DNA of 64,000 nt from assembly GCA_041687095.1 (NCBI GenBank), contig JAWLCQ010000006.1, positions 2,965 to 66,964 of the forward strand, in the 5' to 3' direction. The notes below the pieces were generated by a model. It made no database searches, was not told the origin of the DNA, and saw only the letters and a list, made by a program, of their open reading frames with translations. Shown piece by piece: positions 16,950 to 41,454 of the stretch (positions within the stretch are counted from its first letter, which is position 1; each line of letters starts with the position of its first letter). The position numbers were made by a program, and so were the translations under genes. This DNA comes from Phycisphaerae bacterium. Lineage in GTDB: Bacteria; Planctomycetota; Phycisphaerae; SM23-33.

Positions 16950-17096
16950 CGTCACTCCGTACGGTTCCGTCCCCAAGCAGGGACGCGAAGGATCCCATGA
17001 TACCACTCCCCCCCCGAACGCGGAATGCGTCTCGGCAGGTCGGTTGTGTCAGCAGATCGTGCCAGACGGCCGCTCCTGCGGTACACTGGAACCACC

Positions 17097-17639: not shown

Positions 17640-17759
17640 GCAGCCCGATCTGGGAATACAGAGAAAAATAGGACGCGCCCGCACGCAGGCGGGTAGACGG
17701 ACGGTTCGTTTCGCGATAGCATCCGTAACCGGACTCCTCAATGCCGCTGGAGGAAGCGA

Positions 17760-17885
17760 TTGGCGCCCCAACGTCCCAACGTCTTGTTCATCCTCACCGA
17801 CCAGCAACGCTGGGATACCATCGCCGCCGGGGGCGCCCCCTGGATGCGCACCCCCAACTCCCCGGGGAAGGCGGCGGCCTACTAA
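17760..17885 (+). pseudogene. Sulfatase N-terminal remnant (truncated)
   Basis: The frame translates to 'LAPQRPNVLFILTDQQRWDTIAAGGAPWMRTPNSPGKAAAY*'. It matches the arylsulfatase N-terminal consensus (PNxLFILTDQQRxDT...TPNLDRLA). There is no signal peptide upstream, and a stop follows after ~41 codons. Confidence 0.45.
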
Positions 17886-17944
17886 TGCCCGGGCGTGGCC
17901 GGATCGTCGCGGGTCCCCGGCGAGTCCTCGCACCCGCTGGAGGC

Positions 17945-18137
17945 GGTCGAAATCCGAAACCCGCAATCCCAAACTCGAAACAAGCCCGAAGCACGAAACT
18001 CGAAATCCCAAACAGCCCCCCGTTGTGCAGGGCTCCCCGGCACTCCGAGGCACGCACGGTGCGCAGCCCTTTGGGATTTCGTATCTTCGGTTTTGAATTT
18101 GTTTCGGATTTCGGGCTTCGCATTTCGGATTTCAAGA
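17945..18137. repeat. Lower-GC imperfect palindrome (~190 bp) built from GAAATCCGAAA / CGAAATCCCAAA motif copies in both orientations
   Basis: The left arm is 17945-18013 and the right arm 18069-18137; the ends match as reverse complements (gaaatccgaaa...cgaaatcccaaa). It lies ~370 bp upstream of pilB-1. A related motif occurs at ~6300. Confidence 0.5.
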
Positions 18138-18500
18138 GGTGGGGGCGCTGCGGCGGGCGACCGATCCTGCCCCGCGCAGTGCCCCACCATCTTCCGGCCA
18201 CTCCCCTAATGCCCCCCGGATGCAATCGGTCCTTGATCCTGACGGCCGAGGTGCGATACACTCCCTCATGGATTCCTGCCGCTGAGGCAGCCGTGCCCCC
18301 AGGCTCCGGCCTGGCGATACATCGCCCTCATATATCCGTCATCCCGCCTCAGCGCAGCGAATCGTCACCGAAAGGATTGTCGCGCAACGCCGGATCGGGC
18401 TCCCCCGCGGTGTGCTCTATCGGTCTACCCGAGCGGTGGGCCCTCTCCCCGTTGCGATGGATGTATTTCCATTCCTTCCCGTTTCAGCAGCGAGTGAACC

Positions 18501-20219
18501 ATGGCACAAAAGATTCGAAAACGACTGGGTGAGATCCTGGTGGAGTGGGGCGTCGTGTCCCCGGGCGCGGTGGAGGAGGCCCTGGCGCACGCCCAGGCCG
18601 AGCGGCTGCGGATCGGGGAGGCCCTCATCGCCCTCGAACTCGCGGACGAAGAGGACGTCACGAAGGCCCTGGCGAGCCAGTTCAACATGGAGTACATCGA
18701 CCTCGACCGCAACGTGGTCATCGCCCAGGAGTCGGAGCAGATCCCCATGGATCTGATCCGCCGGCACCTGGTCGTCCCCATGGGGCGGGAGGACGGCAAG
18801 CTCAAGGTGATCATCACCGACCCGCTGGACCTGGAAACCCTGGACATGCTGCGGTTCCGCCTGAACTGCGACCTGGCCCCGGTGCTGGCGTCGCGGACGA
18901 AGCTGCGGAACTACGTCGAGCAGTTCGCCCGCAGCGACGTCAGCATCGACCAGGCGGTCCGGGACGTGTCGACCGACGTCAGCATCGACACGGTCGGGGA
19001 CGAGGACGGCGGGCCGGAGGAAAAGCTCGATGAAAATGCCGCCCCGATTGTCCGTCTGGTTAACATGATCATCACCGAGGCGGTGAACATGCGGGCGTCG
19101 GACATCCACATCGAGCCCATGGCCAACCGCGTCCGCGTCCGCTACCGCGTGGACGGGGTCTGCATGGAGCGCGACAACATCCGCAAGCGCATGCAGGGCC
19201 CGGTCCTCAACCGCTTCAAGATCCTTTCGGGCATGGACCTGGCGGAAAAGCGGATGCCCCTCGACGGCCGCATCAAGATGCGCATCGGCAATGGCGACGT
19301 CGACTTCCGCGTCTCGTCGATCCCCGCCTACCACGGGGAGAGCATCGTCCTGCGTATTCTGCGTCCCGAGAGCGCCAAGCTCGGCGTTCGGGCGCTGGGG
19401 CTGGAGCAGGAAGACTACGACGCCTTCCAGCAGATGATCAAGCGGCCCAACGGCGTGTTCCTGGTTACCGGTCCCACGGGGTCGGGCAAGACGACCACGC
19501 TGTACGCGGCCATCAACGAACTCAACCGGCCCGACCGCAAGATCATCACCGCGGAGGACCCGGTGGAGTACAACTTCACCGGCGTGAACCAGGTTCAGGT
19601 GAACGAGACCATCGAACTCTCCTTCGCCAGGATACTTCGAGCCATGTTGCGCCAGGCGCCTAACGTGATCCTGGTGGGCGAGATTCGCGACAAAGAGGTG
19701 GCTGAAGTGGCCATCCAGGCCGCTCTGACTGGACACTTGGTTTTCAGTACACTCCACACGAACGATGCCCCCTCCGCAATCACCCGTCTGGTCGACATGG
19801 GCGTCAAGCCCTTCCTCGTCGCCAGCAGTATCCAGGCGGTCCTGGCCCAGCGGCTCATCCGCGTAATCTGCAAGGAGTGTCGCCAGGAGGATCCGAACGT
19901 CGATCCGCGCGTCCTGCGGGCCCTGGGGTTCACCGAGGCGGACATCAAGGCCTCAACCTTTTATCGTGGCGCGGGTTGCAGCACGTGCGGCGGGTCGGGA
20001 TACCGTGGGCGGCAGGGCATTTTCGAGATGATGGAGATGGACTCCACCCTCCGCGAGCTGGCCTTCAACCACGCGCCGCTGACGGAGATCCGCAAGGCGG
20101 CCCGGGCCGGGGGCATGCGAAGCCTCCTGGAGGACGGCCGGGCGAAGATCCGCAACGGCGTCACCACGCCGGAAGAGCTGATCCGCGTGACGCAGACCTC
20201 GGACCTGACGGCGGAATAA
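18501..20219 (+). CDS. pilB: Type IV pilus assembly / T2SS ATPase PilB/GspE family (copy 1) with N-terminal MshEN-type domain
   Basis: It has Walker A 'GPTGSGKTT', Asp/His boxes and a tetra-Cys motif (CKEC...CSTCGGSG). The N-terminus has tandem 'RLGEILVEWGVVSPGAVEEAL..Q' and 'RIGEALIALELADEEDVTKALASQ' MshEN-like motifs. Confidence 0.9.
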   Translation: MAQKIRKRLGEILVEWGVVSPGAVEEALAHAQAERLRIGEALIALELADEEDVTKALASQFNMEYIDLDRNVVIAQESEQIPMDLIRRHLVVPMGREDGKLKVIITDPLDLETLDMLRFRLNCDLAPVLASRTKLRNYVEQFARSDVSIDQAVRDVSTDVSIDTVGDEDGGPEEKLDENAAPIVRLVNMIITEAVNMRASDIHIEPMANRVRVRYRVDGVCMERDNIRKRMQGPVLNRFKILSGMDLAEKRMPLDGRIKMRIGNGDVDFRVSSIPAYHGESIVLRILRPESAKLGVRALGLEQEDYDAFQQMIKRPNGVFLVTGPTGSGKTTTLYAAINELNRPDRKIITAEDPVEYNFTGVNQVQVNETIELSFARILRAMLRQAPNVILVGEIRDKEVAEVAIQAALTGHLVFSTLHTNDAPSAITRLVDMGVKPFLVASSIQAVLAQRLIRVICKECRQEDPNVDPRVLRALGFTEADIKASTFYRGAGCSTCGGSGYRGRQGIFEMMEMDSTLRELAFNHAPLTEIRKAARAGGMRSLLEDGRAKIRNGVTTPEELIRVTQTSDLTAE

Positions 20220-20321
20220 CCCCAGAGCCCTTAACAGTCCCAACCGTTTGAAAACAAAATAGTTGTGTGCCTGCCGGACCCCGGGAGCCCTCGCTTTCGG
20301 TGGCCGGGCAGGAGGATCCGG

Positions 20322-20330
20322 TGTGATAAT
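20322..20330 (+). promoter_or_regulatory. Candidate extended -10 element (TGTGATAAT) upstream of pilT in the AT-richer pilB-pilT gap
   Basis: TGnGATAAT lies ~23 bp upstream of the ATG at 20353, and GGGAGAGG is a ribosome-binding site (RBS). No clear -35 is seen. It is speculative in a non-model phylum. Confidence 0.2.
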
Positions 20331-20352
20331 GCACCTGGGAGAGGAAAACTAG

Positions 20353-21483
20353 ATGGCTGCGATTCACATTGACAGATTGCTTGAGACGTGCATCAAGCGG
20401 GGTGCCAGCGACCTGCACCTCCACGTGGGCCGGCGGCCCACGTTGCGGTTGCACGGGCGGCTGCGGCCGTTGGAGACCAAGGTCCTGGAGCCGGAAGACA
20501 CTCTCGCCCTGATGAAGGCCATCACTCCCGAGCGAGCCCAACAGGAAATCCAGGAGCAGGGCGGTACGGATTTTGGGTTCGAGTTCGGCAAGGCCGGCCG
20601 CTTCCGTACCTCCGTGTACAACCAGCGGGGCAACATCTCGCTGGTGATGCGTCTGATCCCCTCCCGCCTCCTGTCCTTCGATGAGATCGGCCTGCCGGAA
20701 ATCGCGCGGGTCGTCTGCCGCCGCCCCCGCGGCATGTTCCTCGTGACGGGCCCGACGGGCTCGGGCAAGACGACGACGCTGGCGACGATGATCGACTACG
20801 TCAACACGGAGTTCGACCGCCACATCATCACCGTCGAAGACCCGATCGAGTACTACCACGATCACAAGAAGTCGATCGTCTCGCAGCGCGAGGTCGGGGT
20901 CGACATCCCCAGCTTCGCCGAGGCCCTCCGCCGCTCGCTCCGTATGGACCCCGACGTGATCCTCGTCGGGGAGCTTCGCGACCTGGAGACGATTGAATCC
21001 GCCCTTCGCGCCGCGGAGACCGGCCACCTGGTGTTCGGGACGCTGCACACCACCAGCGCCCAGGGCACCGTCACGCGTATCGTGGACCAGTTCCCGGTCG
21101 ATCAGCAGGAGCAGATCCGCGTGCAGCTCGCCTCCTCCCTGATCGCCGTGCTCTCCCAGACCCTTCTGCCGCGCGTGGACATCCGAGGCATGACCGCGGC
21201 CTTCGAGTTCCTGTACGTCACCCCTGCCGTCGCGAACCTCGTCCGCGAGAACAAGGTCTTCCGCATCCCGTCGGCCATCCAGACGGGGCGGAAGTTCGGC
21301 ATGCAGTTGCTGGACGAGCACCTGTTCCGCCTGTTCGCCGAGGGCAAGATCTCCGAGGAGGATGCCATCGACCGCAGCCAGCAAGCCGGGGAAATGCAGG
21401 AGAAGATCGAGGCGTTCCGGGCCGGGAAGTACGTTCCCCCCACGGAGCAGGATCAGGGTTCCGACGACCAGGCGGCAGGCTGA
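20353..21483 (+). CDS. pilT: Twitching-motility retraction ATPase PilT/PilU family
   Basis: The N-terminus 'RGASDLHLHVGRRPTLRLHGRL' is PilT-like. It has Walker A 'GPTGSGKTT' and 'ILVGELRD'. RBS GGGAGAGG. Confidence 0.9.
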   Translation: MAAIHIDRLLETCIKRGASDLHLHVGRRPTLRLHGRLRPLETKVLEPEDTLALMKAITPERAQQEIQEQGGTDFGFEFGKAGRFRTSVYNQRGNISLVMRLIPSRLLSFDEIGLPEIARVVCRRPRGMFLVTGPTGSGKTTTLATMIDYVNTEFDRHIITVEDPIEYYHDHKKSIVSQREVGVDIPSFAEALRRSLRMDPDVILVGELRDLETIESALRAAETGHLVFGTLHTTSAQGTVTRIVDQFPVDQQEQIRVQLASSLIAVLSQTLLPRVDIRGMTAAFEFLYVTPAVANLVRENKVFRIPSAIQTGRKFGMQLLDEHLFRLFAEGKISEEDAIDRSQQAGEMQEKIEAFRAGKYVPPTEQDQGSDDQAAG

Positions 21484-21497
21484 GGAGGTAGCGACCC

Positions 21498-23270
21498 ATG
21501 GGAATGACACCGGATATCGCGGAATTCAAAAAGCGGGTGACGATCGACGAACTCCGCGGGCGGCCGCTGGGGCGCGTGCTGCTCAAGCTCGGGTGCGTGA
21601 CGCGGGAGCAGGTCAACGAGGCCCTGGAGATCAAGAAGGACAAGGGCGGCACGATCGGGCAGATCATGGTGGACCTCGGGCACATCTCGGACAAGACCCG
21701 CGCGTTGGCGATGGGATTCCAGTCCGGGATGGAGTACGTGGACCTGAGTTCCATCGACGTGCCCCCCGAGGTCGTGCACCAGATCCCCGCCCAGATGGCC
21801 ACGACGTACCGCATCATCCCGCTGGACTTCGATCAGGAGACCAAGCGGCTGACGGTGGCGTTGGACTCGGCGGAGAACTTCCAGGCGACGGACGACCTGC
21901 AGACGCTGATGGGCTTCCGCGTCACGGCGAAGATCTGCGAGCCCGAGCAGCTCGACTCGGCCGTCCAGAAGTACTACGGGACGGGCGACGAGAAGCTCAG
22001 CGACCTGTTCAACGAGATCGCCGGGGACGATGACTTCGATGCCCTGGAGAACCGCGGGGAGAGCATCGACCTGGACACCATCAAGGAGATGGCGGACTCC
22101 AACCCCGTCCGCCGCCTGGTGAACATGGTGCTCTGGGAGGCCATCCGCAACCGCTCGTCCGACATCCACTTCGAGCCCTTCGAAGACGAGTTCAAGATGC
22201 GCTACCGCATCGACGGGGTGCTGTACGAGATGCTCCCGCCCCCCAAGTCGATCGCCGTCGCCATCGCCTCCCGCATCAAGGTCATGGCCAACCTCGACAT
22301 CGCCGAGCGCCGCCTGCCCCAGGACGGCCGCATCGAGCTGGTCGTCCGCGGGGCCCCGGTGGACCTCCGCGTCTCGGTGCTCCCGACCATGTTCGGGGAG
22401 AGCGTGGTCATGCGTGTGCTCGACCGGTCGAACGTCTCGCTGGACCTCGACCGCATCGGGTTGCGCGAGGACGACCAGCGGATCTTCCGGCAGTTGATCA
22501 AGCGGCCCAACGGGATCGTCATCGTGACGGGCCCGACGGGTTCGGGCAAGACGACGACGCTGTACTCCGCCCTCAACGACCTCAACGACGTCGAGGTGAA
22601 GATCCTCACCAGCGAGGACCCCGTCGAGTACGACATCGACGGGCTCGTCCAGGTGCAGATCAACGACGAAATCGGCCTGACGTTCGCGCGGTGCCTGCGG
22701 CACTTCCTGCGGCAGGACCCGGACGTCATCCTCATCGGGGAGATCCGCGACCTCACGACGGCCGAGATCGCCGTCCAGTCCTCGCTGACGGGCCACCTGG
22801 TGTTCTCCACCCTGCACACCAACGACGCCCCCTCCTCCATCGCGCGTCTGCTGGATCTCGGCCTCGAGCCGTACCTCGTGACGGCGACGCTGGAGGGGAT
22901 CGTCGCCCAGCGCCTGGTGCGAACCATCTGCAGCCGCTGCAAGGAGGAGTTCACGCCCACCGAGGAGATGCTGTACGAACTGGGCCTCACGCCCGACCAG
23001 ATCTCCGGGCGGACCTTCTTCCGCGGGGCCGGGTGCGAGTACTGCCGCAACACGGGCTACAGCGGCCGAATGGCCATCTTCGAGATCATGGTGATCGACG
23101 ACGAGCTGCGAGAGTTGATCATGAAGCGGAGCAGCACGAACCTGCTGCGGCAGGCGGCGAGGAAGCGCGGCATGCGAACGCTGCGAGAGAGCGGGTTGAT
23201 GGCGATCTACGACGGGCAGACCACGATCGAAGAGGTCGTGGGGCAGACCATCGAAGAAGAGATGGAATAA
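21498..23270 (+). CDS. PilB/GspE-family assembly ATPase (copy 2) with N-terminal GSPII/MshEN-like domain
   Basis: It has Walker A 'GPTGSGKTT' and a tetra-Cys motif (CSRC...CEYCRNTG). The N-terminus has 'RPLGRVLLKLGCVTREQVNEALE'. It lies 14 bp after pilT. Confidence 0.9.
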   Translation: MGMTPDIAEFKKRVTIDELRGRPLGRVLLKLGCVTREQVNEALEIKKDKGGTIGQIMVDLGHISDKTRALAMGFQSGMEYVDLSSIDVPPEVVHQIPAQMATTYRIIPLDFDQETKRLTVALDSAENFQATDDLQTLMGFRVTAKICEPEQLDSAVQKYYGTGDEKLSDLFNEIAGDDDFDALENRGESIDLDTIKEMADSNPVRRLVNMVLWEAIRNRSSDIHFEPFEDEFKMRYRIDGVLYEMLPPPKSIAVAIASRIKVMANLDIAERRLPQDGRIELVVRGAPVDLRVSVLPTMFGESVVMRVLDRSNVSLDLDRIGLREDDQRIFRQLIKRPNGIVIVTGPTGSGKTTTLYSALNDLNDVEVKILTSEDPVEYDIDGLVQVQINDEIGLTFARCLRHFLRQDPDVILIGEIRDLTTAEIAVQSSLTGHLVFSTLHTNDAPSSIARLLDLGLEPYLVTATLEGIVAQRLVRTICSRCKEEFTPTEEMLYELGLTPDQISGRTFFRGAGCEYCRNTGYSGRMAIFEIMVIDDELRELIMKRSSTNLLRQAARKRGMRTLRESGLMAIYDGQTTIEEVVGQTIEEEME

Positions 23271-23288
23271 GCCTACAGGAGTACTGCA

Positions 23289-24566
23289 ATGCCGGTATAC
23301 ACCTACGAAGCAATGAACAACCTCGGTCAGTCCGTCAAGGACCAGATCGAGGCGGGCTCCAGCGAGGACGCCATCGCCAAGATCCGGGCGATGGGGTTCT
23401 TCCCCACCAAGATCAAGGAGCAGGCCGGCAAGAAGGGCCCCGCCAAGGGCGCCGGCCGGGGCGGCCAGCAGGCCCAGGCGCGCGGCGGCAAGGGCGGGGC
23501 CGGGGCCCGCCGCACCGCCGGGAAAGTCTCCGCCAAGCTCCTCACCCAGTGCACCCGCCAGCTCTCCACCCTCGTCGACGCCGGCCTGCCCATCCTGCGG
23601 TCCCTCCGCATCCTCGAACAGCAGCAGAAGCCCGGCATGATGCGCGTCGCCATCCGCGTCGTCGCCGATGACGTCGAGGCGGGCTCCAGCCTCTCCGAGG
23701 CGTTCAGCCGCCACCCCAAGGCCTTTGACCGCCTCTACACCAACATGGTCAAGGCCGGCGAGGCCGGCGGCGTGCTGGACATCATCCTCCAGCGCCTCGC
23801 GGACTTCATGGAGAAGTCCCAGGCCCTCCGCCGCAAGGTCATCGGGGCCATGATCTACCCCCTCGCCGTCATCACCTTCGCCATGGTCATCGTCACCCTG
23901 CTGCTCATGTTCGTCGTCCCCAAGTTCAGCGAGATCTTCCAGGGCATGGGCGTCGCCCTGCCCACCGTCACGCAGTTGCTGCTGGACCTCAGCGCGTGGA
24001 TCAGCGGCGGCGGGTGGCTCGCCCTCATCGGCGTCCCGCTTCTCGTCTTCGCCATCTTCCGCCTGTTGCGGCTGTCCGAGGGCGGGAGCTACTTCGTGGA
24101 CCTGCTGAAGATCCGCATCCCCATCATGGGCCGCATCGCCTCCAAGAGTTCCGTCGCCCGCTTCTCCCGAACCCTGGGCACCCTCCTCGCCGCCGGCGTG
24201 CCCATCCTCGACGCCATCACCATCACCGCCGACACCGCCGGTAACGAGGTGTACGGCCGCGCGCTGCGGAAGGTCCGCAACGCCATCCGCGAGGGCGAGA
24301 ACTTCGCCGCCCCCCTCCGCCAGGCCAAGCTCGTCGATGCCATGGTCGTCAACATGATCGACGTGGGCGAGGAGACCGGCGAACTCGACAAGATGCTCGA
24401 GAAGATCGCCGACAACTACGACGACGAGGTCGACACCCTCGTGTCGTCCATGACCTCGCTGCTCGAACCGGTCATGGTCATCACCCTGGGCGGGATCGTC
24501 GGATTCATCGTGCTCGCCCTGTTCATGCCCATGATCAGCCTGATCCAGAACGTGTCCGGCGGCTAA
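23289..24566 (+). CDS. pilC: Type IV pilus / T2SS inner-membrane platform protein PilC/GspF
   Basis: It has two T2SSF repeats with three TM segments and a GspF-like N-terminus (MPVYTYEAMNNLGQSVKDQIEA). Confidence 0.85.
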   Translation: MPVYTYEAMNNLGQSVKDQIEAGSSEDAIAKIRAMGFFPTKIKEQAGKKGPAKGAGRGGQQAQARGGKGGAGARRTAGKVSAKLLTQCTRQLSTLVDAGLPILRSLRILEQQQKPGMMRVAIRVVADDVEAGSSLSEAFSRHPKAFDRLYTNMVKAGEAGGVLDIILQRLADFMEKSQALRRKVIGAMIYPLAVITFAMVIVTLLLMFVVPKFSEIFQGMGVALPTVTQLLLDLSAWISGGGWLALIGVPLLVFAIFRLLRLSEGGSYFVDLLKIRIPIMGRIASKSSVARFSRTLGTLLAAGVPILDAITITADTAGNEVYGRALRKVRNAIREGENFAAPLRQAKLVDAMVVNMIDVGEETGELDKMLEKIADNYDDEVDTLVSSMTSLLEPVMVITLGGIVGFIVLALFMPMISLIQNVSGG

Positions 24567-24737
24567 CGGACCGAGACATCCGAGCGAAGACACGTGGAGA
24601 CACCATGACCCTCCGCCACCAGACAGAGCGATTCCGCGACGCGACCCGCCAAGTGCGGGCGGCGGGATCGCTCTGTCCGGGGCGAGGAATCACGCAGATA
24701 TAGGCTCCGCAGGAGCGGGCCAGAAAGGACGTGCGAT

Positions 24738-25460
24738 ATGAGGCACGGGAACCGAGGGATACGCGGCGGCGGCCGCGGGTTCACGCTTGTCGAGCTGATG
24801 GTGGTCATCACGATCATCGGGCTGCTGGTGGGGTTGATGGCGCCGGCGATGACGGCGATCCGCCGCGCGGCGATGGAGGCGCGGTGCAAGGCCCGCATCG
24901 GCGAGCTGAGCAACGGGTGCCTGCAGTTCTGGGAAGACAACAAGCTCTACCCCGCGCAGGACTACACGTCCAAGCTGGGAAAGACAGGCCAGGGCGTCGT
25001 CAGCGGGGCGTCGGCGATGAGCGCGGCCCTGTTCGGGTACGACTATCCCATGGGCCGCCATGGCAATCTTGATAACGTGATGGCACCGTATGCCGTCACC
25101 ATCCGCCAGGTCGCCATCAGCAAGTACGCCCAGTTGGACTCCGCGCAAGACTTCTGCGCCAGGGACAACATGGCCACGATGAGCGATCGGTGGAGCGGCC
25201 AGCCGATGCCGATCCTGTACTACCCCTCGCGGCCCGGCGTGAAGGGGCTGGAGCAGTACGTGGAGAATGACAACATCGCGCACACGGAGGGGGTCACGTG
25301 GAAGCGAGGCACGAGCACCAAGTTCCATGACTACATCGCCAACAAGGTCCTCGGCGGCGGCGTGCCGTACAACGACCAGAAGTTCCTGATCATCGCCGCC
25401 GGATCGGACCGCAAATACGGGACCTCCGACGACATCACCAACTGGACCCGGGAGGAGTAG
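24738..25460 (+). CDS. Pseudopilin/pilin with prepilin-type N-terminal cleavage/methylation domain (class III signal G|FTLVE)
   Basis: 'RGFTLVELMVVITIIGLLVGL' has F at +1 and E at +5 after the cleavage Gly. Confidence 0.85.
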   Translation: MRHGNRGIRGGGRGFTLVELMVVITIIGLLVGLMAPAMTAIRRAAMEARCKARIGELSNGCLQFWEDNKLYPAQDYTSKLGKTGQGVVSGASAMSAALFGYDYPMGRHGNLDNVMAPYAVTIRQVAISKYAQLDSAQDFCARDNMATMSDRWSGQPMPILYYPSRPGVKGLEQYVENDNIAHTEGVTWKRGTSTKFHDYIANKVLGGGVPYNDQKFLIIAAGSDRKYGTSDDITNWTREE

Positions 25461-25464
25461 CGCC

Positions 25465-26232
25465 ATGCACGCCACCACCCCACGTTCCTCCTCCCGCCCC
25501 CGCGGGGGGTTCACCATCGTCGAGCTGACGCTCACCGTCGCCATCATGACGCTGATCTCCACGGCGATGCTGATCTCCTACTCGCGCTACGTGAACCTCG
25601 CGCGGAAGTCGGCGACCCGGGCCACCTTCCAGCAGATCGACTCGGCGGTGTACCTGTACGCCTCCGACAACGACAACCAGTTCCCGCCCAGCCAACTCAA
25701 CGGCGTGGCCGGTGCGCAGTGCCTGCCGATCTTCATCGCCGGATGCGTGGGCGATGAGGGCGGCGACAACACGCCCTCCGAAAAGTGGCGGAACAGCAAG
25801 GGCGTCGTCGCCGACGACGGCAAGGAGGGGTTCGGGTACCGCAAGGTCGCCCGCGGGCGCGTCTACGGGCCGTACAACGGCGTGGAGCAGATCCCGCTGA
25901 AGAAGCCCGACGGGGTGGATACGGCCTACCCGGTGTTCTACGACTCCTTCGGGGGGATCATCTTCTACTACCGCTGCGATCGCTCCGTGCTCCAGTCGAA
26001 CTACAACCAGGCCTACCAGATCAGCGACCACGACTCCAGCAAATGGGCAGGGAACAAGGGCCCGATCACGCCGGGCAACGCCTACTTCAAGAACATCTCC
26101 ATCGACGAGGGCGAACCCCGCTACTTCCGCACCGACTTCACCCTCTGCTCCTGGGGGCCCAACGAGCGGTGGCAGAACCCCACGAACCCGGCCAGCGACG
26201 ACAACACCAACTTCGATTTCGCCAGAAAGTAG
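25465..26232 (+). CDS. Pseudopilin with prepilin-type signal (G|FTIVE)
   Basis: 'RGGFTIVELTLTVAIMTLIS' carries the prepilin-type signal. It lies 4 bp after the previous gene. Confidence 0.8.
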   Translation: MHATTPRSSSRPRGGFTIVELTLTVAIMTLISTAMLISYSRYVNLARKSATRATFQQIDSAVYLYASDNDNQFPPSQLNGVAGAQCLPIFIAGCVGDEGGDNTPSEKWRNSKGVVADDGKEGFGYRKVARGRVYGPYNGVEQIPLKKPDGVDTAYPVFYDSFGGIIFYYRCDRSVLQSNYNQAYQISDHDSSKWAGNKGPITPGNAYFKNISIDEGEPRYFRTDFTLCSWGPNERWQNPTNPASDDNTNFDFARK

Positions 26233-26242
26233 AGAGCCAGCC

Positions 26243-26962
26243 ATGCGGTATCGACAGCACTATCACGACCGAGCGGCGGAACGGGGCCGGGGGGAGCGCG
26301 GCGGCATGACGCTCGTCGAGCTGCTGGTGGTCCTTTTCGTGATCGCCATCCTCGTCTCCCTGGTGGTGGGCGTCTCGTCGTACATCACCACCCGCGTCTC
26401 CATCTCCCAGACCCAGGCGACCCAGACCGTGGTCAACGGGGCCATCCAGGCCTACGTGAAAGCGCAGGACGCCCCCCCCGCCCATCCGACCAGCGCACTC
26501 TACGACGTCATCCTGCAGGGCGACTCGGAGATGATCTGGAAGACCGAGCTGCAGTGGGAAGAGCAGGATGTCCGCGCCTACGTCCGCAGCCTCTGCCTGT
26601 TCCACCAGCTCGTCCACGTGCCCGAGTCGGCGCGGGAGCTGCAGCACCTGGGCGTGGGGGAGGCCCTCGAACAGGTCAGCCTGGTGAGCGGCAACCCGGC
26701 ATCCAACTACACCGGGCTGGTCTACACCACCTGGTTCAAGGAGTGGGAGTCGGACTGGGGCCGGGACGCCAACGCCCCGCCCCGCGCGTTCATGGACGGG
26801 TTCGGCAAGCACATGGACTACAAGAGGAACGAGGGGCTCGGCGGCAACCCCGTCCTCATCTCCGCCGGAGAGGACGGGCGGTTCGGGGACCGCGGCAGCG
26901 ACAGCCCGATCCTCCGAAACGCCGTCGCCGACAACGTACGCTCCGACAACCGCAACCAGTAG
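26243..26962 (+). CDS. Pseudopilin with prepilin-type signal (G|MTLVE)
   Basis: 'GGMTLVELLVVLFVIAILVSL' carries the prepilin-type signal. Confidence 0.8.
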   Translation: MRYRQHYHDRAAERGRGERGGMTLVELLVVLFVIAILVSLVVGVSSYITTRVSISQTQATQTVVNGAIQAYVKAQDAPPAHPTSALYDVILQGDSEMIWKTELQWEEQDVRAYVRSLCLFHQLVHVPESARELQHLGVGEALEQVSLVSGNPASNYTGLVYTTWFKEWESDWGRDANAPPRAFMDGFGKHMDYKRNEGLGGNPVLISAGEDGRFGDRGSDSPILRNAVADNVRSDNRNQ

Positions 26963-26982
26963 CCCCTCGGGGAGAGCAGAAC

Positions 26983-27921
26983 GTGAATACCTATACGACA
27001 CTCCGATCCCGGCCGGGCTTCACGCTGATGGAACTCATGATCACGCTGATGCTCATCGCCCTGCTGGCGGCGTTGGCGCTGCCGACGGTGATGACCCTCT
27101 TCAACTCCGGGGCCGAGGAGCAGGCCGTCAACATCCTCACCGCCCAGATCAACGCCGCCCGCTCCCTCGCCATCCGCAAGAACACCTACGCCGGCGTCCA
27201 CGTCCAACTCGCCGACAAGGCCCTCGACATCCCCTTCGACACCAACGACCCGCGCGAGCGGAAGTACGTGTGCTACTCGGCCGTCGTCTGGGCCGATCCG
27301 TCCGCCGCCTCCCAGGCCGCCGGGGATCAGATCAAGTTCCGCATCGCCCCCAACTACCAGCCCATCCGCATGCCCCGCACCATCGCCTTCGGGGTGGTGG
27401 CGGCCCCGTTCGTCAACCCGGACGAGGAAAAGGAGCCGTACACCACCGCTCTGCTGACCCATCGGTTCGACGCGTCGGACATGTCGGGGCCTGACTACAT
27501 CCGCGAGTTCACCACCTTCACCATCGTCTTCAGCCCCTCCGGGCAGATCCTCAACCGGCTGCCCACCGGCGATCTGGAGTTCGCGGAGATCAAGCCGGAG
27601 GAGTCCGGCGGGCCCGAAGTGGACCCGTTCATCGACGACGACGACCCCAAGACCGAGGCCAGCCTCTGGAACCGCGACTGGGCGGAGCAGTACCAGACCG
27701 ACTACAACACCGGGGACGATGACACCAAGCTGGCGCAGAACAGGTCCCGCCGCCTCGCCCGGACGGTCGTCGTGTTCGACGTCGTCTACCTCATGCAGAT
27801 GCCCCGATCGTACCTGACCGCCGACAGCAAGACCGTCTACCCGCGTGCGGACCACATGAACGCCACGGGCGGCTACCTCGCCATCAACCCTCATACCGGG
27901 CAGTTGCTGCCCAGGGAGTAA
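26983..27921 (+). CDS. Pseudopilin with prepilin-type signal (G|FTLME); GTG start
   Basis: 'RPGFTLMELMITLMLIALLAAL' carries the prepilin-type signal. The start is the GTG at 26983, preceded by GGGGAGAG. It shares a frame with the artefactual long ORF 26554-27921. Confidence 0.75.
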   Translation: MNTYTTLRSRPGFTLMELMITLMLIALLAALALPTVMTLFNSGAEEQAVNILTAQINAARSLAIRKNTYAGVHVQLADKALDIPFDTNDPRERKYVCYSAVVWADPSAASQAAGDQIKFRIAPNYQPIRMPRTIAFGVVAAPFVNPDEEKEPYTTALLTHRFDASDMSGPDYIREFTTFTIVFSPSGQILNRLPTGDLEFAEIKPEESGGPEVDPFIDDDDPKTEASLWNRDWAEQYQTDYNTGDDDTKLAQNRSRRLARTVVVFDVVYLMQMPRSYLTADSKTVYPRADHMNATGGYLAINPHTGQLLPRE

Positions 27922-27926
27922 CGGCC

Positions 27927-28745
27927 ATGAGAACCAATCCTCGAACGACGCGTGCGCCGCGATACGGCTTCTCGCTCGCCGAGATGGTCATCGCCCTGGC
28001 CATTCTCGGGGTGGGCCTGAGCATGCTGCTCTCCCTCTTCCCCGCCGCCATCGTCGAGACCGCCTCGTCCACCAACCAGACCATGGGCTCGCTGATCTGC
28101 CAGAACGGGCTCACCATGGCCAAGAGCGCCCTGACCTCCGACCTGCTGCTGTCGCGAAAGCCCAGTACGGACGAGCAGCCCCACAACGGGTGGATGCGGG
28201 TGCAGGAGGTCCGCGAAGCGTGGACCAACCTGGTGAACCTGGGGGACCGGCGGTATCCCGTGCAGGCGATCGCCAAGACGACCACGCGCGGCGTGGTGAT
28301 CCTGGCGCGCAAGGTCAACGCGGACGTGAACGACCACCGGTGGCAGCTCATCGCCGTCTCCTATGCGAAGAAGAACGCCACCGGGACGACGGTGCGCGGC
28401 CTGTACCCCACGGATACCCCCGAAGCCCATCCGAAATCCTACATCACCCAGGACATCGATCGGAATGAGAAGCGGTTCACCGTGACGGGCAACCGGCGGC
28501 TCTTCTTCAAGAAGGGCGGCGTGGTGATTGACTGCAGCCAGGGCAGTTCCGGGGAGTTCGCACGCATCGCCGAAATCGAGCGTCTAAGCGAGAGCGAAAA
28601 CCGCGTGACCCTGGACCGGGCCTTCAGCCGCGACGTCAGCCGGGTGATCGTGATCGAGGAGTACAAGGGCGCCGCCCTGGTCACCGACGGCGATAGCGCG
28701 GTGATGAACGTGATGAGTATCGAAACGATTCTCCCGAAGAACTGA
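27927..28745 (+). CDS. Pseudopilin with prepilin-type signal (G|FSLAE)
   Basis: 'RYGFSLAEMVIALAILGVGLSML' carries the prepilin-type signal. Confidence 0.8.
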   Translation: MRTNPRTTRAPRYGFSLAEMVIALAILGVGLSMLLSLFPAAIVETASSTNQTMGSLICQNGLTMAKSALTSDLLLSRKPSTDEQPHNGWMRVQEVREAWTNLVNLGDRRYPVQAIAKTTTRGVVILARKVNADVNDHRWQLIAVSYAKKNATGTTVRGLYPTDTPEAHPKSYITQDIDRNEKRFTVTGNRRLFFKKGGVVIDCSQGSSGEFARIAEIERLSESENRVTLDRAFSRDVSRVIVIEEYKGAALVTDGDSAVMNVMSIETILPKN

Positions 28746-28756
28746 CCGCCAGCCTC

Positions 28757-29875
28757 ATGGAGGTGAGCACAATGCCTCACAACACACAGACAGACCGTGC
28801 GAATCCCAGTCGCCGGCACGCAGCGCGCGGGTTCACGATGCTGGAGCTGCTGGTGGCGACGTCGATCCTGACGCTGATGGTGCTGATCGTCGGGTCGCTG
28901 CTGTCCGCGAGCCAGTCCCTCGCCCGCAAGGGCCACACGAAGATGCGCGCCAACGCCGCCGCCGTCAACCTCGCCGAGACCATCCGCGAGGACATCCGCC
29001 GCATCTCCCGCCACGGGTTCCTCAGCATCACCCGCAAGGACGAGCAGGCCGTTATGCTGATGACCGTCGCGGGCCCGACCGCGAGCATCCGGGCCGCGGG
29101 GAAGGTGGGCACCGAGGCGCTGGTCATCTACTGCTTCTCGGCCCCCGTCCAGAACGACAATGTCAAGGCCGACAAGGTCTGGGCCCACGTCCTGCGGATT
29201 CCGGTTCTGCTGATGGGCCCGGGGAACCCCAACGACCCGGACCTCAGCGTCGCCCACATGTTCAACGTCCAGCGGCTGCCGCGCGGCCTGGACCGCACGG
29301 CCGGATCCCCCAGCTACAGCAACATCACCACGATCCAGGACATGAACGAACTGGTGGACTACTTCATCCACAACAAGGTCCCGTACACCGGCAACCCGGA
29401 CGACCTGAAGGTGCCCCCCAGCACCGCCAAGGCCGCCCTGGAGTCCTGGCGCGTCGCCGCCAACGAGTGCAAGGAGTTCCGCATCCAGTGGACGGACGGG
29501 CTGCACCCGACCACGACTCCGCTCAGATGGTACGGCCCGCTGGTCTCGCCCAATCGCCCCACGGCGAAGGCGGACCTCCCCAAGGTCACGGGGTGGACGA
29601 GTTCGCACGCGTGGGCCAAGACCGGCGCGGGCGACTACTACACCGAGTTCAACGCCGTCAAGAGCGGCTCGCCCATCTACCGCGTGCTCTGGACCCGCGA
29701 GAACCTCAACGACTGGCCCCGCGCGGTTCGGATCCGCTACAAGATGTCCCCGACCACCCTCTCCCCCGAGCTCAAGGCCGCCGGGCTGGACAAGACCTCC
29801 GCGGACGCGGCGGAGAGGGACGACGCGAAGAACGGCGTGGGATTCTACGAGATCATCTGCCCGATCAAGCACTGA
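28757..29875 (+). CDS. Pseudopilin with prepilin-type signal (G|FTMLE)
   Basis: 'ARGFTMLELLVATSILTLMVLIV' carries the prepilin-type signal. Confidence 0.8.
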   Translation: MEVSTMPHNTQTDRANPSRRHAARGFTMLELLVATSILTLMVLIVGSLLSASQSLARKGHTKMRANAAAVNLAETIREDIRRISRHGFLSITRKDEQAVMLMTVAGPTASIRAAGKVGTEALVIYCFSAPVQNDNVKADKVWAHVLRIPVLLMGPGNPNDPDLSVAHMFNVQRLPRGLDRTAGSPSYSNITTIQDMNELVDYFIHNKVPYTGNPDDLKVPPSTAKAALESWRVAANECKEFRIQWTDGLHPTTTPLRWYGPLVSPNRPTAKADLPKVTGWTSSHAWAKTGAGDYYTEFNAVKSGSPIYRVLWTRENLNDWPRAVRIRYKMSPTTLSPELKAAGLDKTSADAAERDDAKNGVGFYEIICPIKH

Positions 29876-29894
29876 TCGGATTGCGAGGTTTGCC

Positions 29895-32888
29895 ATGCAC
29901 ACGACTACACGCACGCGACGAGGCTCGGCCCTGATCATGGTGGTGGGCTTGCTGTCCATCATCGCGATGATCGGAACGGCGTTCTACCTCACCAGTCACA
30001 TGGAGAACGAGCAGTCCGCGGTGATCGCGTCACGGGTCCCCATCGGCCCCATTGCCGAGGGCGTCCTCTCGCAGGTCCTGCTCAAGCTGTCGGACGATCT
30101 GCACATCGATCCCGTGGACACCACCATCGAGGTGGGCCCGTACACCGACCTGTCCGATCCGAACGTGGATCTCGTCAAGACCTGGCTGGAGTTCGTCGAC
30201 GCCCCCGGGATGACGACGGACCCGCACCTGGCGTGCACCACGCCCCTTCCGGAAGCCTTCCCCACGTGGCGCCACCTCACAGACCTCGTCGGGAACGGCA
30301 TGTCGGTCGAGTACGTGAGCACCAGCGCCGACGAGCTGAGCGACACGGACGGGTACGATCCCCTCCCGACCCAGGCCGATCCCACCGCCAAGCGCGAGAA
30401 GGACGCCGTCCGCCTCCGCACCGGCTGGACCGATTCCACCGGGCTCGAGTACTTCTACGCCGTCCGCGTCACCGACCTGTCCGGCCTGCTGTGCCTCAAC
30501 ACCGCCTCGGGCCCCGACACCACCGACACCACGCTCAAGACCTCCCAGCCGGCACTGGTCGATCTGCGGAAGTTCTTCGTCAGCAAGAACGTGCAGGGCG
30601 TGTTCGACAACCTCAACGACTGGCGGTTCGGAACGCTGACGGACGACAAGAAGAAGCTCAAGCACCTGCACGAGATCCTGGGGACGCACGTGCTCCGTCC
30701 GCTGGATCCCTTCGCCGAGAATCCGGAACTGACCCCCGTGCGGCAGTGCTTCCCCTACACCCCGGGCGAGGAGGTCTGCCTCCGCTACCTGGGCGGGGGG
30801 ACCGGGACCAACGCCACCGACATCTCCCAGAACGGGCGCGTCTGGGCCGCCATGGGCAGCCGCCTCGGCACCCACCAGTACCCCACGGCCCGGCGGCTGC
30901 TGACGACCATGAACTCGCAGCGGCCCGTGATGCGGTTCCAGGAGAAGCGGAGCCTGACCCACACGCCCGACTTCTACTACCGCTACTGCCTGACGAACAA
31001 GGTGCTCAAGGGCGACCAGCCGGCGGAGCGGGAGAGGCTGTACTACGTGCTGGAGCACTTCCTCAAGGAGACAAGCCCCGCCACCAGCGAGATCGAACGC
31101 CGCAAGGCCGCCACGCATTTCGTCGCCAACCTCTGGGCGCGGTACGGGCAGCACGAGAAGTACGACAACGCGACGGAACACTCCGAGGATCCCAACTACC
31201 CGTGGGTCTTCGCCTGCCCCCATAACGACCCCGGCGATCCCAGCAGCAACTATACGGCGTACGGCATGATCCGCCGGCCGGTGATCACCGAAGCCTACGC
31301 GGTCTACAGCCCCGACACCGCCGATCCGGCGACCGGCGTGCCCGCGAATGACTGGTACTGGGGCTGCGCCATCGAGATCTGGAACCACGACAAGTATCCC
31401 ATCGACCTGAGGACCTACCGCGTCCGCCTCGGCGATGGGACGTGGAAGTCCCTGGCCAACGTGAAGCTCAAGGCCAACGAACGCTACGTGATCTACGACG
31501 TCGGGTCCGGGGAGAACGCTCCCAGAAAGACGGCCGACGCCATCTTCGCCGACTGGGACCAGGTCCCCAACAAGGAGCAGATCGCCGGGTTCGACTTCGG
31601 GGACAGCGGCAAGACGGTCCTGCTCGCCGAGGAGTGCCTGAAGGACTCCAGGACCGAATGGATCGCCGCCGACCAGATGGCGGACCTCTCGTACTCGACG
31701 GCGACCTCCACGGATCCCGCCGATCCCAACGCCCCCGCCCTCAACATCCGCGTGTGGAAACGGGACGATCACCCCGACCGGCAGCGGTTCAACGTCGCCG
31801 ACGCCGTCATCGACGATTCGCCCGACACCGAAACCAACGCGCATACGCTGGGGCGCCCCAACACCCTGTCTTCCGCGGAGCACGACAAGCTTGACGACTT
31901 CGTCCAGTTCCCCGTCGCCATCGACGACCGCAGCAACGGGTTCCGGTCGATCGGCGACCTGTTCCCCGTCTACTGGGCCGGCCCCAGCCGCGCCGGGGCC
32001 CCCACTGACCCCGATCCCGAGATCCTGCCCTTCAGCATGAACATCCGAACCGGTCCGATGCAACTGGCGAGCAACGGCAGCACGATCTATGCGGGGCGGC
32101 TGAACCTCGTTCCGCCCGAGATTCCCAACCCCACCACCCCCGGGCGCGGCCAGGGCCGCGGGGGCCTCTACCCCGACCTGCCCGTCGCCTGCCTCCTGGG
32201 CGAGTTCATCACGATGACGCCGCTGGACGACCGCGTCACGCCCCAGCGCACCTACGGGTTCATCAATATCAACACGGCCCCCGCGGAGGTGCTCGCCCAC
32301 CTGCCGTTCCCGGAGACGATCAAGCTCGCCTCCGGGTCGGAGGTCCAGATCAGCGCGGCCACGGCGGCCGAGTACATCTACGAGTATCGCGAGCTGCGCG
32401 GACGCTACCACGACGATCACAACGTCCCCGGGGACGGCCGGGCCAGTGCGGTCGTGAAGAACGCCCGCGCGCTGCCGGGCACCTCGAACGTGTGTGCGGA
32501 GAAGTGCTTCCTGACGCCCGGGGAGGTGGCCATCCCTCTCGGCCATTACGCGGCCTTCGCCCTCGGCTGGCCGGCCAGGGCGGATGACCCCAACACCGCC
32601 GACATGCTGAACACGGCCCACCCCACTGCCGATTCGCTCCTGAAAGACCCCGATTTCATCCAGGTGCGGGATCAGCTCTACGCCTCCATCGCCAACATGA
32701 TCACCACGCAGAGCAACACCTACGCGGTGACGATCAGCGTCGACGTCGGCACGCCCGCCAATCCCAAGGTCGCCAACTCCAAGGTGGTGATCCAGTACTC
32801 GCAGAAGTACCTGGCGATCATCGACCGCAGCAACTGCGATAAGGCCAGTGACCGCCCGACCGTCGTGCTGTTCTGCCGAACCGAGTAG
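29895..32888 (+). CDS. Giant GspK-like minor pseudopilin (997 aa)
   Basis: The N-terminus 'RRGSALIMVVGLLSIIAMIGTAFYL' is GspK-type, with a hydrophobic helix and no E at +5. It has a long periplasmic body. It is the last gene of the pilus operon. Confidence 0.7.
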   Translation: MHTTTRTRRGSALIMVVGLLSIIAMIGTAFYLTSHMENEQSAVIASRVPIGPIAEGVLSQVLLKLSDDLHIDPVDTTIEVGPYTDLSDPNVDLVKTWLEFVDAPGMTTDPHLACTTPLPEAFPTWRHLTDLVGNGMSVEYVSTSADELSDTDGYDPLPTQADPTAKREKDAVRLRTGWTDSTGLEYFYAVRVTDLSGLLCLNTASGPDTTDTTLKTSQPALVDLRKFFVSKNVQGVFDNLNDWRFGTLTDDKKKLKHLHEILGTHVLRPLDPFAENPELTPVRQCFPYTPGEEVCLRYLGGGTGTNATDISQNGRVWAAMGSRLGTHQYPTARRLLTTMNSQRPVMRFQEKRSLTHTPDFYYRYCLTNKVLKGDQPAERERLYYVLEHFLKETSPATSEIERRKAATHFVANLWARYGQHEKYDNATEHSEDPNYPWVFACPHNDPGDPSSNYTAYGMIRRPVITEAYAVYSPDTADPATGVPANDWYWGCAIEIWNHDKYPIDLRTYRVRLGDGTWKSLANVKLKANERYVIYDVGSGENAPRKTADAIFADWDQVPNKEQIAGFDFGDSGKTVLLAEECLKDSRTEWIAADQMADLSYSTATSTDPADPNAPALNIRVWKRDDHPDRQRFNVADAVIDDSPDTETNAHTLGRPNTLSSAEHDKLDDFVQFPVAIDDRSNGFRSIGDLFPVYWAGPSRAGAPTDPDPEILPFSMNIRTGPMQLASNGSTIYAGRLNLVPPEIPNPTTPGRGQGRGGLYPDLPVACLLGEFITMTPLDDRVTPQRTYGFININTAPAEVLAHLPFPETIKLASGSEVQISAATAAEYIYEYRELRGRYHDDHNVPGDGRASAVVKNARALPGTSNVCAEKCFLTPGEVAIPLGHYAAFALGWPARADDPNTADMLNTAHPTADSLLKDPDFIQVRDQLYASIANMITTQSNTYAVTISVDVGTPANPKVANSKVVIQYSQKYLAIIDRSNCDKASDRPTVVLFCRTE

Positions 32889-32889
32889 T

Positions 32890-33630
32890 CCACGAATTGC
32901 ACGAATTGCACGAAGGACGCGGGTGGCACGGATGACACGAAGAGGCTGAGCGGCGGACAACGCCGCGAGCCGCAAGCCCCGATCGCCGCTCGGGGATTCT
33001 GGAAGCCCAGGGGGAGCTTCCGGGATCCTCGAGCGGCGATTCTTTATTGGCCCCCACCTGCTCTGTCTCGACCCTCTGTTCCGGGGCCTCCCGGGGGCCG
33101 CCGTGCCCCCGAGCATGCGATCTTTCTTGGTAGACGACGGATCGGCCCCGGACCGACGGCCGCGGATCGGGCCGGTTCCCAAGGGTCGAGACAGAGCAGC
33201 CCCCACCCGGTTCGCCGCCGCCCTGCTGGGCACGGCGGCGGCCTCCGCTCGCGGGCGCCAGTGCGCAAATCATGGCGAGGTCCGCTTCCTCAGTTGCCCC
33301 CAGGCGGCCTCCGCTTGCGGGCGCCAGTGCGCAAATCCGAAGTGCACAAGCCCGAAGGGCTTTCAGAGCCGTAGCCCAGGGCCCAGCGCAGCGCCGCCCT
33401 GGGTACGGGCGATGGGGGTTTCCCGCCCTGAAAGGGCCCAAGAGCGCCCAGGCATTCTCTTGTGCCCCTTCAGGGCGAACACTCGTGGAACGGCGGACCC
33501 AGGGCGGCGGCCTGCGGCCTTGCCCGGGGCTACGGCTCTGGCAGCCCTTTGGGCTGCGGACTTCGTAAACCACGGCGCTCGCTTACCGTAGCCCACGGCA
33601 CTCGCTTACCGTAGCCCGGGGCATCCGCTT
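32890..33630. repeat. Composite repeat-rich noncoding spacer between the convergent operons
   Basis: It contains a tandem CACGAATTG x2 at 32890-32915, an IR at 32982-33042, and an IR GCTCTGTCTCGACCCTCTGTTCCGG (33060-33084) against CCGGTTCCCAAGGGTCGAGACAGAGC (33172-33197). A 35-bp direct repeat lies at 33236-33270 and 33304-33338. A nested palindrome spans 33365-33540 (CAGAGCCGTAGCCC / GGGCTACGGCTCTG). A 24-bp tandem x2 lies at 33571-33618. ORFs here are palindrome artefacts. Confidence 0.6.
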
Positions 33631-33733
33631 ATACGCATCCCAGGTGATTCTCGGGCAGCGTCGATTGGACGTGGTTGCTCCGCTGCGCTCCGCAAACCAC
33701 GGCACCCACCCGAGAATTGAGTGGAACGCGTAT
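33631..33733 (+). mobile_element. MITE-like family A full-length copy (TIR ATACGCATCC ... GGAACGCGTAT), flanked by TA dinucleotides
   Basis: It is about 90 % identical to 883-987. The flank reads TA|TACGC...GCGTA|TA, suggestive of a Tc1/IS630-type TA duplication. The other full copy does not show this. Confidence 0.5.
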
Positions 33734-33783
33734 AAGTGGAACCCGTCTTACCGAGCCGGAGCCTTGGGCTTGGGCAAGATGCG

Positions 33784-35466: not shown

Positions 35467-35491
35467 CTACGACTTTCGCAGGGGGCGGGGG

Positions 35492-35923: not shown

Positions 35924-35984
35924 GGTTCGTCTGATTCCTCCGCCCCGGCGGGTCCGGGGGCGGGTTCCTGTCTGCAGGCGGGTG

Positions 35985-36868: not shown

Positions 36869-36875
36869 GCGGGGA

Positions 36876-41450: not shown

Positions 41451-41454
41451 AGGG

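Follow-up and report, generated by a model that had tools for sequence, protein, structure and literature searches.

Type IVa pili (T4aP) are defined by PilB-type motors together with PilT, and type II secretion systems (T2SS) by the pseudopilins GspG to GspK, encoded in gsp order without PilT. Here we describe an operon that mixes these features, at positions 18501 to 32888 (+ strand) of a 64-kb stretch of contig JAWLCQ010000006.1 from a Phycisphaerae bacterium (Planctomycetota; assembly GCA_041687095.1). We refer to this whole stretch as the window. The operon is predicted to encode two PilB-family ATPases (PilB1 and PilB2) on either side of a PilT, one PilC/GspF platform protein, six prepilin-type proteins (p1 to p6), and a 997-amino-acid (aa) terminal protein (the K protein). 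We consider it roughly 60% probable that these genes encode the inner-membrane and filament core of a single type IV filament machine characteristic of Phycisphaerae, in which T4aP motors would act on T2SS-type subunits, the two PilBs would share one platform, and the other parts would be encoded elsewhere.

The closest described systems leave room for such a mixture. According to earlier work, T2SS lost PilT, and certain "T2SS" outside the Proteobacteria group with T4aP or defy classification (PMC6668835; PMC4793230). Two extension motors on one machine have been reported in Acinetobacter baylyi, where one of PilB and TfpB is proposed to initiate extension and the other to sustain it (PMC8213720; PMC11656802). 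No account of the operon in Phycisphaerae was found among the open-access papers searched. It represents a hitherto undescribed variant of known machines, each component coming from a known family.

Results

The eleven genes are co-directional and high in third-position GC, and they run in the order PilB1, PilT, PilB2, PilC/GspF, the six prepilin-type proteins, and the K protein (Table 1). A first-pass annotation, made by reading the DNA without database searches, had proposed this anatomy, including a PilT between two PilB-family ATPases, N-terminal MshEN domains and tetracysteine motifs in both PilBs, and a PilC followed by six pilins with class III signals. Open reading frame (ORF) and domain scans bore out the gene count, strand, and coordinates as well as these assignments: both genes flanking PilT matched T2SSE, the MshEN domain and CxxC...CxxC motifs were found in each PilB, and T2SSF and N_methyl/TIGR02532 matches identified the genes that follow. 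The intergenic gaps, in order, are 133, 14, 18, 171, 4, 10, 20, 5, 11, and 19 bp, with 14 bp separating PilT from PilB2 and 18 bp separating PilB2 from PilC. The annotated range of 4 to 20 bp thus holds for eight gaps and fails for two (133 and 171 bp). The fourth pilin starts at a GTG codon (26983) with a GGAG-like site 5' of it and is nested in a longer, spurious ORF (26554 to 27921).

To place the two motors, we compared PilB1 and PilB2, which are 41% identical, with family models, solved structures, and each other. The PilB equivalog model TIGR02538 was the top model for both (594.4 bits for PilB1 and 632.4 bits for PilB2, each below the cut-off of 675.65 bits); the GspE model scored 572 and 623 bits, respectively, under its own cut-off of 630.25 bits and under the PilB scores. 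Among the nearest solved structures, both proteins were likewise closer to T4aP PilB/PilF than to GspE. PilB2 scored 535 bits against Myxococcus PilB, its best relative in the PDB, versus 448 bits against PilB1, and PilB1 scored 458 bits against Geobacter PilB. In a PilT-rooted neighbour-joining tree with few references (100 bootstraps), a phylogeny of the PilB copies that the first-pass annotation had recommended, PilB1 and PilB2 formed two separate clades, each monophyletic in 100/100 replicates and exclusive sisters in 0/100. PilB2 grouped with the Myxococcus and Geobacter PilBs in 71/100 replicates, and PilB1 fell, without a firm position of its own, within the PilB/PilF group relative to Escherichia coli GspE in 73/100. 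Because PilB2 is nearer than PilB1 to Myxococcus and Geobacter PilB, we regard it as the canonical T4aP motor; PilB1 is, as judged from its sequence, an old and divergent PilB lineage.

Three other origins or states of the motors were rejected. A recent tandem duplication of PilB is ruled out by the 41% identity, the higher score of PilB2 to Myxococcus PilB, and the tree. Degeneration of either paralogue, which had been raised as a possibility at the outset, is ruled out by motif conservation: the Walker A and B motifs, the Asp and His boxes, the arginine-finger region, and both CxxC pairs were invariant or near-invariant across 55 PilB1 and 82 PilB2 orthologues, and both copies in the window keep intact ATPase motifs. 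Finally, PilB1 is not a TfpB orthologue, since it scored 448.7 bits against the TfpB model NF053534, far under the cut-off of 850 (PilB2, 470.6 bits). The remaining inner-membrane components were assigned by the same means. The PilT match to TIGR01420 exceeds the cut-off of 319.1 bits and spans residues 6 to 345 of 376. The platform protein scored 390 bits against the GspF model and 369 and 358 bits against PilC models, all under the equivalog cut-offs, and is the sole PilC/GspF in the window.

Both N-terminal MshEN domains are predicted to bind cyclic di-GMP (c-di-GMP). PilB1 (46.0 bits) and PilB2 (43.4 bits) pass the MshE-type c-di-GMP motif model NF053729 (cut-off, 38), and both contain the tandem 24-residue RLGxx(L/V/I)(L/V/I)xxG... 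motifs that mark MshEN receptors. The half-sites of PilB1 are the canonical RLG and RIG, whereas PilB2 orthologues have PLG, within an N-terminal (R)PLG motif, and T/P-IG; both motif arginines are gone and the hydrophobic positions are kept. In MshE, the arginines shift c-di-GMP affinity less than fivefold, and the hydrophobic residues shift it more than tenfold (PMC5013675). Given these affinity data, we dropped a strong claim that PilB2 has lost c-di-GMP binding, and differential gating of the two motors by c-di-GMP is treated here as a hypothesis only.

In contrast to the motors, the subunits resemble those of a T2SS. All six prepilin-type proteins carry a signal of the form G|F/M-x-x-x-E (FTLVE, FTIVE, MTLVE, FTLME, FSLAE, and FTMLE, in gene order). 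Profiles of p1, p2, and p3 aligned with E. coli GspG over their N-terminal 64 to 66 residues (hhalign; Table 1), and TIGR01710 scored 52.6 bits on the GspG-type subunits, under its cut-off of 88.85. The three families also have a C-terminal motif in common, hhh-S/A-A/P-G-x-D ... G/T ... DD-I/V-T-N-W/F. At the C terminus of p1 it reads IIAAGSDRKYGTSDDITNW, compared with LLSAGPDGEMGTEDDITNW in E. coli GspG, and it is kept in 40 family members; G-P/A-D ... DDITNF is kept across the p2 family, and LISAGxDGxF ... DD/DN is conserved in the p3 family. On these matches p1 to p3 are classed as GspG-type major pseudopilins. For p4, the longest-aligning partner was GspH, with weak N-terminal matches to GspH and to Verru_Chthon cassette protein D. 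The p5 protein gave weak matches to PilV, XpsI, and cassette protein B and an ambiguous hhalign result, and p6 had GspJ as its best hhalign partner with weak matches to PilV/GspI and cassette protein C. The gene order parallels that of the gsp operon (E, F, G, H, I, J, K). With T4aP-type motors and a GspG-G-G-H-I-J-K set side by side, the operon therefore combines T4aP motors with T2SS-type pseudopilins, a pairing that the first-pass annotation had overlooked and that sets the operon apart more clearly.

The K protein, with the N terminus RRG|SALIMVVGLL, lacks Glu5. Scans with NCBIfam and Pfam gave sub-threshold GspK matches only; hhalign against E. coli GspK gave a probability of 6.6%, over the N-terminal helix alone; and profile searches of the PDB (with 26 and 102 sequences) returned a match to the HhH motif and none to GspK. 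When the 102-sequence alignment was supplied to AlphaFold, the mean confidence (pLDDT) of the model rose from 49.7 to 81.3 (pTM, 0.87), and the predicted structure matches GspK/XcpX. Pfam matches to LTD in 17/26 homologues and to HHH_3 in 5/26 agree with the model. Taken together, the model and the inserted domains therefore point to a complete GspK fold enlarged about threefold by binding-type modules. We accordingly read the K protein as a predicted GspK minor pseudopilin by fold, though without Glu5, and the original description of it as GspK-like proves right at that level. A full HMMER scan found the family in 3868 representative clusters (50% identity) at E ≤1e-3 and in 681 at E ≤1e-30. 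No Pfam or NCBIfam model describes it, and the lengths of its members (homologues P0002-P0282; ~800 to 1400 aa) suggest variable inserted modules.

To determine how widely this arrangement is conserved, we searched a species-representative genome collection with PilB2, which returned at least 565 related stretches. The best 80 (64 to 78% identity) all come from metagenome-assembled genomes (MAGs) of Phycisphaerae/Planctomycetota, including records titled Phycisphaera mikurensis, Tepidisphaeraceae, and SM23_33. We compared 81 loci with flanks of ~10 kb, labelling the ORFs of the relatives by similarity to the window proteins. The full order, from PilB1 through PilT, PilB2, PilC, and the pilins to the K protein, was present in about 37 Phycisphaerae genomes (L001-L037) wherever the sequence allows. 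Among the 62 informative loci, those with at least 3.3 kb 5' of PilB2, 50 had PilB1-PilT-PilB2, 3 had PilB1-PilB2, and 9 had PilB2 alone; these counts were hand-corrected against the ORF-label map for three over-long ORFs. More distant Phycisphaerae (L038-L081) carry a different pilin set after PilB2-PilC (e.g., L041, 15709 to 20142; L063, 19663 to 21723), made up of larger prepilin-type proteins (330 to 590 aa) and a shorter K-like protein whose N terminus is likewise RRG-x-x-L-V. Given these differing downstream sets, the subunit cassette appears to have been swapped between lineages while the motors were kept. PilB1 has hundreds of metagenome relatives at ≥70% identity, annotated generically as PilB, GspE, or TadA. 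The operon is therefore real and widely conserved in Phycisphaerae, and it is common in public MAGs under generic automatic annotation.

Table 1. Predicted genes of the operon and the hairpin in its longest spacer
Feature	Position	Strand	Evidence
PilB1, divergent PilB-type extension ATPase, 572 aa	18501..20219	+	T2SSE E 1.3e-130, MshEN E 6e-19
PilT-family retraction ATPase, 376 aa	20353..21483	+	TIGR01420 441 bits
PilB2, canonical T4aP-type PilB extension ATPase, 590 aa	21498..23270	+	T2SSE E 1e-139, MshEN E 2e-15
PilC/GspF inner-membrane platform, 425 aa	23289..24566	+	T2SSF E 2e-67, two repeats
p1, GspG-type pseudopilin, 240 aa, G|FTLVE, enlarged globular part	24738..25460	+	hhalign GspG 99.2%
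p2, GspG-type pseudopilin paralogue, 255 aa, G|FTIVE	25465..26232	+	hhalign GspG 98.1%
p3, GspG-type pseudopilin paralogue, 239 aa, G|MTLVE	26243..26962	+	hhalign GspG 98.5%
p4, minor pseudopilin, GspH/FimU position, 312 aa, G|FTLME	26983..27921	+	hhalign GspH 94.8%, 61 columns
p5, minor pseudopilin, GspI/PilV position, 272 aa, G|FSLAE	27927..28745	+	N_methyl E 3e-6; subtype by position only
p6, minor pseudopilin, GspJ/PilW position, 372 aa, G|FTMLE	28757..29875	+	hhalign GspJ 91.9%, 60 columns
Giant GspK-fold terminal pseudopilin (K protein), 997 aa, G|SALIM, lamin-tail (Ig-like) and ComEA-like HhH inserts	29895..32888	+	predicted structure
RNA hairpin in pilC-p1 spacer	24610..24687	+	MFE -72.7 kcal/mol, z -5.96

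Components that such a machine would also need were sought around the operon. Pfam and NCBIfam scans of the other ORFs detected no secretin, GspC/L/M, PilM/N/O, or prepilin peptidase in the 64 kb, and the window had no phmmer match to the GspC, D, L, M, or O proteins of E. coli K-12. Homologues of secretin, GspC/L/M, and the peptidase were also absent within ~10 kb at the 81 related loci, as searched with E. coli queries in the local flanks, and no such Pfam family turned up among the neighbouring genes. The T4aP set of PilM/N/O/P/Q and PilD was likewise missing from the window and from the flanks of relatives. These results agree with the annotated absence of outer-membrane and alignment genes in cis. 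We infer a split locus, in which genes elsewhere in the genome would supply the prepilin peptidase, the alignment proteins, and an outer-membrane channel, if there is one.

The rest of the window is predicted to encode housekeeping and envelope functions. The neighbours of the operon include a UvrD-like helicase, a MutS2-like protein, an amidase, a PAS histidine kinase, DUF4159, ExbB/ExbD, three TPR proteins, an aldo-keto reductase, GH65, FtsK, a dUTPase, and CoaB. An LptF/LptG-family pair (10472 to 13668, - strand), consisting of adjacent permease genes with large insertions (ORFs of ~577 and ~597 aa), points to a lipopolysaccharide outer membrane that a surface filament would have to cross. 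The sole recurrent neighbour is an RF-1-domain gene (ArfB/peptidyl-tRNA-hydrolase-like; 17025 to 17639, + strand, and 9109 to 9660 in L083). It lies directly 5' of the operon in 12 related loci and has no obvious functional link to it. On the - strand at 33784 to 49326, co-directional genes encode DUF4159, ExbD, MotA/ExbB, and three TPR proteins (one of 2623 aa), together with a 174-aa ORF that has a faint GltJ match; this cluster may be an envelope-spanning proton-driven system, unrelated or loosely tied to the pilus operon. Two long ORFs with high third-position GC had no Pfam or NCBIfam match (61844 to 64000, + strand, 718 aa, cut off by the end of the window; and 5341 to 6753, - strand, 470 aa).

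Non-coding elements were found within and on both sides of the operon. The hairpin in the 171-nt pilC-p1 spacer (Table 1) has no T-tract and no match in Rfam. Because the corresponding spacers of relatives are mostly 10 to 35 nt long and lack it, it looks like a lineage-specific palindromic insertion, and the idea that this spacer holds a conserved regulatory RNA was rejected. Promoter and terminator scans found sites no more frequently than in shuffled sequence. The 860 nt of non-coding DNA 5' of PilB1 (17640 to 18500) contain a long imperfect palindrome, especially at 17947 to 18118, with arms built of CGAAATCCGAAAC / GTTTCGGATTTCG units (13 nt 100% complementary; 27-nt arms, 70%). The ~900 nt 3' of the operon (32889 to 33783) carry inverted repeats (46-nt arms at 33058/33154 and 34-nt arms at 33349/33522), a hairpin with 25-nt arms (32982 to 33040), and a 35-nt direct repeat (33237/33303, 97% identical). 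These repeats may belong to REP/MITE-like elements or mark a terminator region.

Discussion

In the single machine that we favour, p4 to p6 and the GspK-fold protein would form a priming or tip complex on PilC, and the K protein would expose its lamin-tail and HhH inserts at the tip, where they would act as a binding module. The PilB motors would polymerise GspG-type subunits beneath this complex and PilT would remove them, yielding a fibre or pseudopilus that can retract. The two extension ATPases would work on the same platform with their labour divided, as modelled on A. baylyi PilB and TfpB, either between initiation and processive extension or through differing c-di-GMP sensitivity of their MshEN domains. 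The first-pass annotation had suggested either two filament types or two assembly modes sharing one platform. That there is only one PilC, in a tightly spaced and conserved operon, speaks for a common predicted platform for both motors.

Several points weigh against this proposal. PilB2-PilC-pilin modules occur without PilB1-PilT in 9/62 loci, and PilB1-PilB2 occur without PilT in 3/62. The nine loci imply that the motors are separable, and therefore that PilB1-PilT could serve another machine. The count of one PilC covers the 64-kb window and the ~10-kb flanks of relatives, and the tree rests on neighbour-joining with few references. The structure of the K protein is a prediction, and the subtypes of p4 to p6 are based on N-terminal similarity and gene order. 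Given the small effect of the arginines in MshE, the motif difference between PilB1 and PilB2 may also matter little functionally.

The main rival is that PilB1 and PilT serve a different machine. PilB2, PilC, and the pseudopilins would then constitute a T2SS-like secretion system with a short periplasmic pseudopilus, and PilB1 and PilT would be the motors of another machine, a retractile T4aP whose platform, pilin, and secretin are encoded elsewhere, the two being co-transcribed for co-regulation only. The nine loci noted above fit such a division, as does the finding that PilB1 and PilT are usually gained or lost together; so do the ancient, distinct lineages of the two PilBs, the general machine specificity of extension ATPases (PMC11656802), and the normal absence of PilT from T2SS (PMC6668835). 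However, PilT lies between the PilBs, 14 bp from PilB2, in 50/62 loci of several named Phycisphaerae groups, no locus has a second PilC or a T4a-type pilin within ~10 kb, and the PilC-adjacent PilB2 is itself T4aP-like rather than GspE-like. We therefore consider two machines in one operon unlikely, if still to be reckoned with.

A second alternative does away with a secretin: the machine would either be a pseudopilus confined to the periplasm or use an outer-membrane structure specific to planctomycetes. This is in keeping with the lack of a secretin in the window and at the related loci, and pili-like fibres have been seen to emerge from planctomycete-specific crateriform structures in Planctomycetia (PMC5394234). 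The first-pass annotation had offered such an architecture, next to a split locus, as a reading of the absence in cis, which gives no basis for it: such absence is normal for T4aP-type systems, whose loci are usually split with the pilins apart from the other genes (PMC6668835), a Gemmataceae genome has been reported with PilQ, PilM/N/O, and PilD (PMC7397252), and the LptF/LptG pair in the window implies an outer membrane in the path of any surface filament. As the search also covered E. coli queries and local flanks only, we judge a secretin-free architecture very unlikely. Least likely of all is a composite extension motor in which PilB1 and PilB2 co-assemble as mixed hexamers or as stacked or alternating rings: co-transcription, strict co-conservation, the retention of all catalytic and zinc-binding motifs in both paralogues, and two-hybrid interactions of extension ATPases in other species (PMC11656802) are compatible with it, but their 41% identity is as low as that between separate ATPase families, a heteromeric PilB is without precedent in any system, and some genomes have PilB2 without PilB1.

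If one machine is encoded, as we favour, two extension ATPases would serve a single platform in a phylum far removed from that of A. baylyi, as an independent second example; here the link is hard-wired by a shared operon, and it would open the question of why there are two PilBs to simple genetics. Because the operon mixes features that define T4aP and T2SS, it also bears on the origin of T2SS from T4aP and on active pseudopilus retraction. The family of GspK-fold proteins with LTD and HhH modules is large and lacks a curated family. Phycisphaerae are abundant polysaccharide degraders, and the phylum is treated as such in PMC11131199; a retractile fibre with a binding tip would be a plausible part of that lifestyle. 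A bolder version, which we regard as quite unlikely, is that the operon encodes a T2SS-type pseudopilus with a kept or regained retraction motor and two extension motors, a living T4aP/T2SS intermediate with a giant GspK-fold tip that binds polymers (polysaccharide or DNA) and reels them to the cell. This would recall the dextran-binding fibres seen in Planctomycetia (PMC5394234). If true, it would provide a molecular candidate for polymer "fishing" by Planctomycetota fibres and a natural test of the T2SS piston model with a real retraction ATPase.

Compared with known systems, the motor genes are closest to the T4aP set of Myxococcus xanthus and Geobacter. PilB2 scores highest against these proteins (535 to 524 bits) and groups with them in the neighbour-joining tree, and the MshEN N-domain, the tetracysteine motif, a PilT over its family cut-off, and the pilB-pilT-pilC order are common to both. 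The operon differs in having a second, divergent PilB 5' of PilT, PilBs that both fall under the TIGR02538 cut-off, and subunits of the GspG/H/I/J/K type rather than a T4a pilin with FimU-PilVWX-PilY1. With the T2SS gsp operon it has in common the order of ATPase, platform, G, H, I, J, and K, GspG-type major subunits with a C-terminal SAGxDGxxGTxDDITNW-like motif, and a last protein of predicted GspK fold. Unlike that operon, it contains PilT and two ATPases of PilB rather than GspE type, three GspG paralogues of ~240 aa rather than one of ~145 aa, and a GspK homologue that is threefold larger with LTD and HhH inserts, and it has no GspC, D, L, M, or O in cis.

The nearest functional parallel is A. 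baylyi, where two phylogenetically distinct and catalytically intact PilB-family ATPases likewise coexist with one retraction motor, the pair being about as divergent as PilB is from GspE (PMC8213720). The present case differs in that PilB1 is no TfpB orthologue, both motors share an operon with PilT and PilC, the phylum is another, and the system is known from genes alone. The Verru_Chthon cassettes A to D of Verrucomicrobia (TIGR02596-02600) are also prepilin-type cassettes of the PVC superphylum, which p4, p5, and p6 weakly match (proteins D, B, and C); these matches are N-terminal only and fall short of the cut-offs (33.2 versus 70, 21.1 versus 51.4, and 18 versus 256.5 bits), and the K protein did not match cassette protein A. 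The "T2SS" of Bacteroidetes (Cytophaga) and the T2SS-like systems of Chlamydiae and Leptospira are similarly non-proteobacterial and T2SS-like in content, with cores that cluster with T4aP or are unassignable (PMC6668835; PMC4793230). Compared by description only, they differ in that accounts of them mention no second extension ATPase and no PilT within the operon. On its gene content, the Phycisphaerae operon fits this grey zone between T4aP and T2SS, to which it adds an in-operon PilT, a second extension ATPase, a triplicated GspG, and a giant modular GspK.

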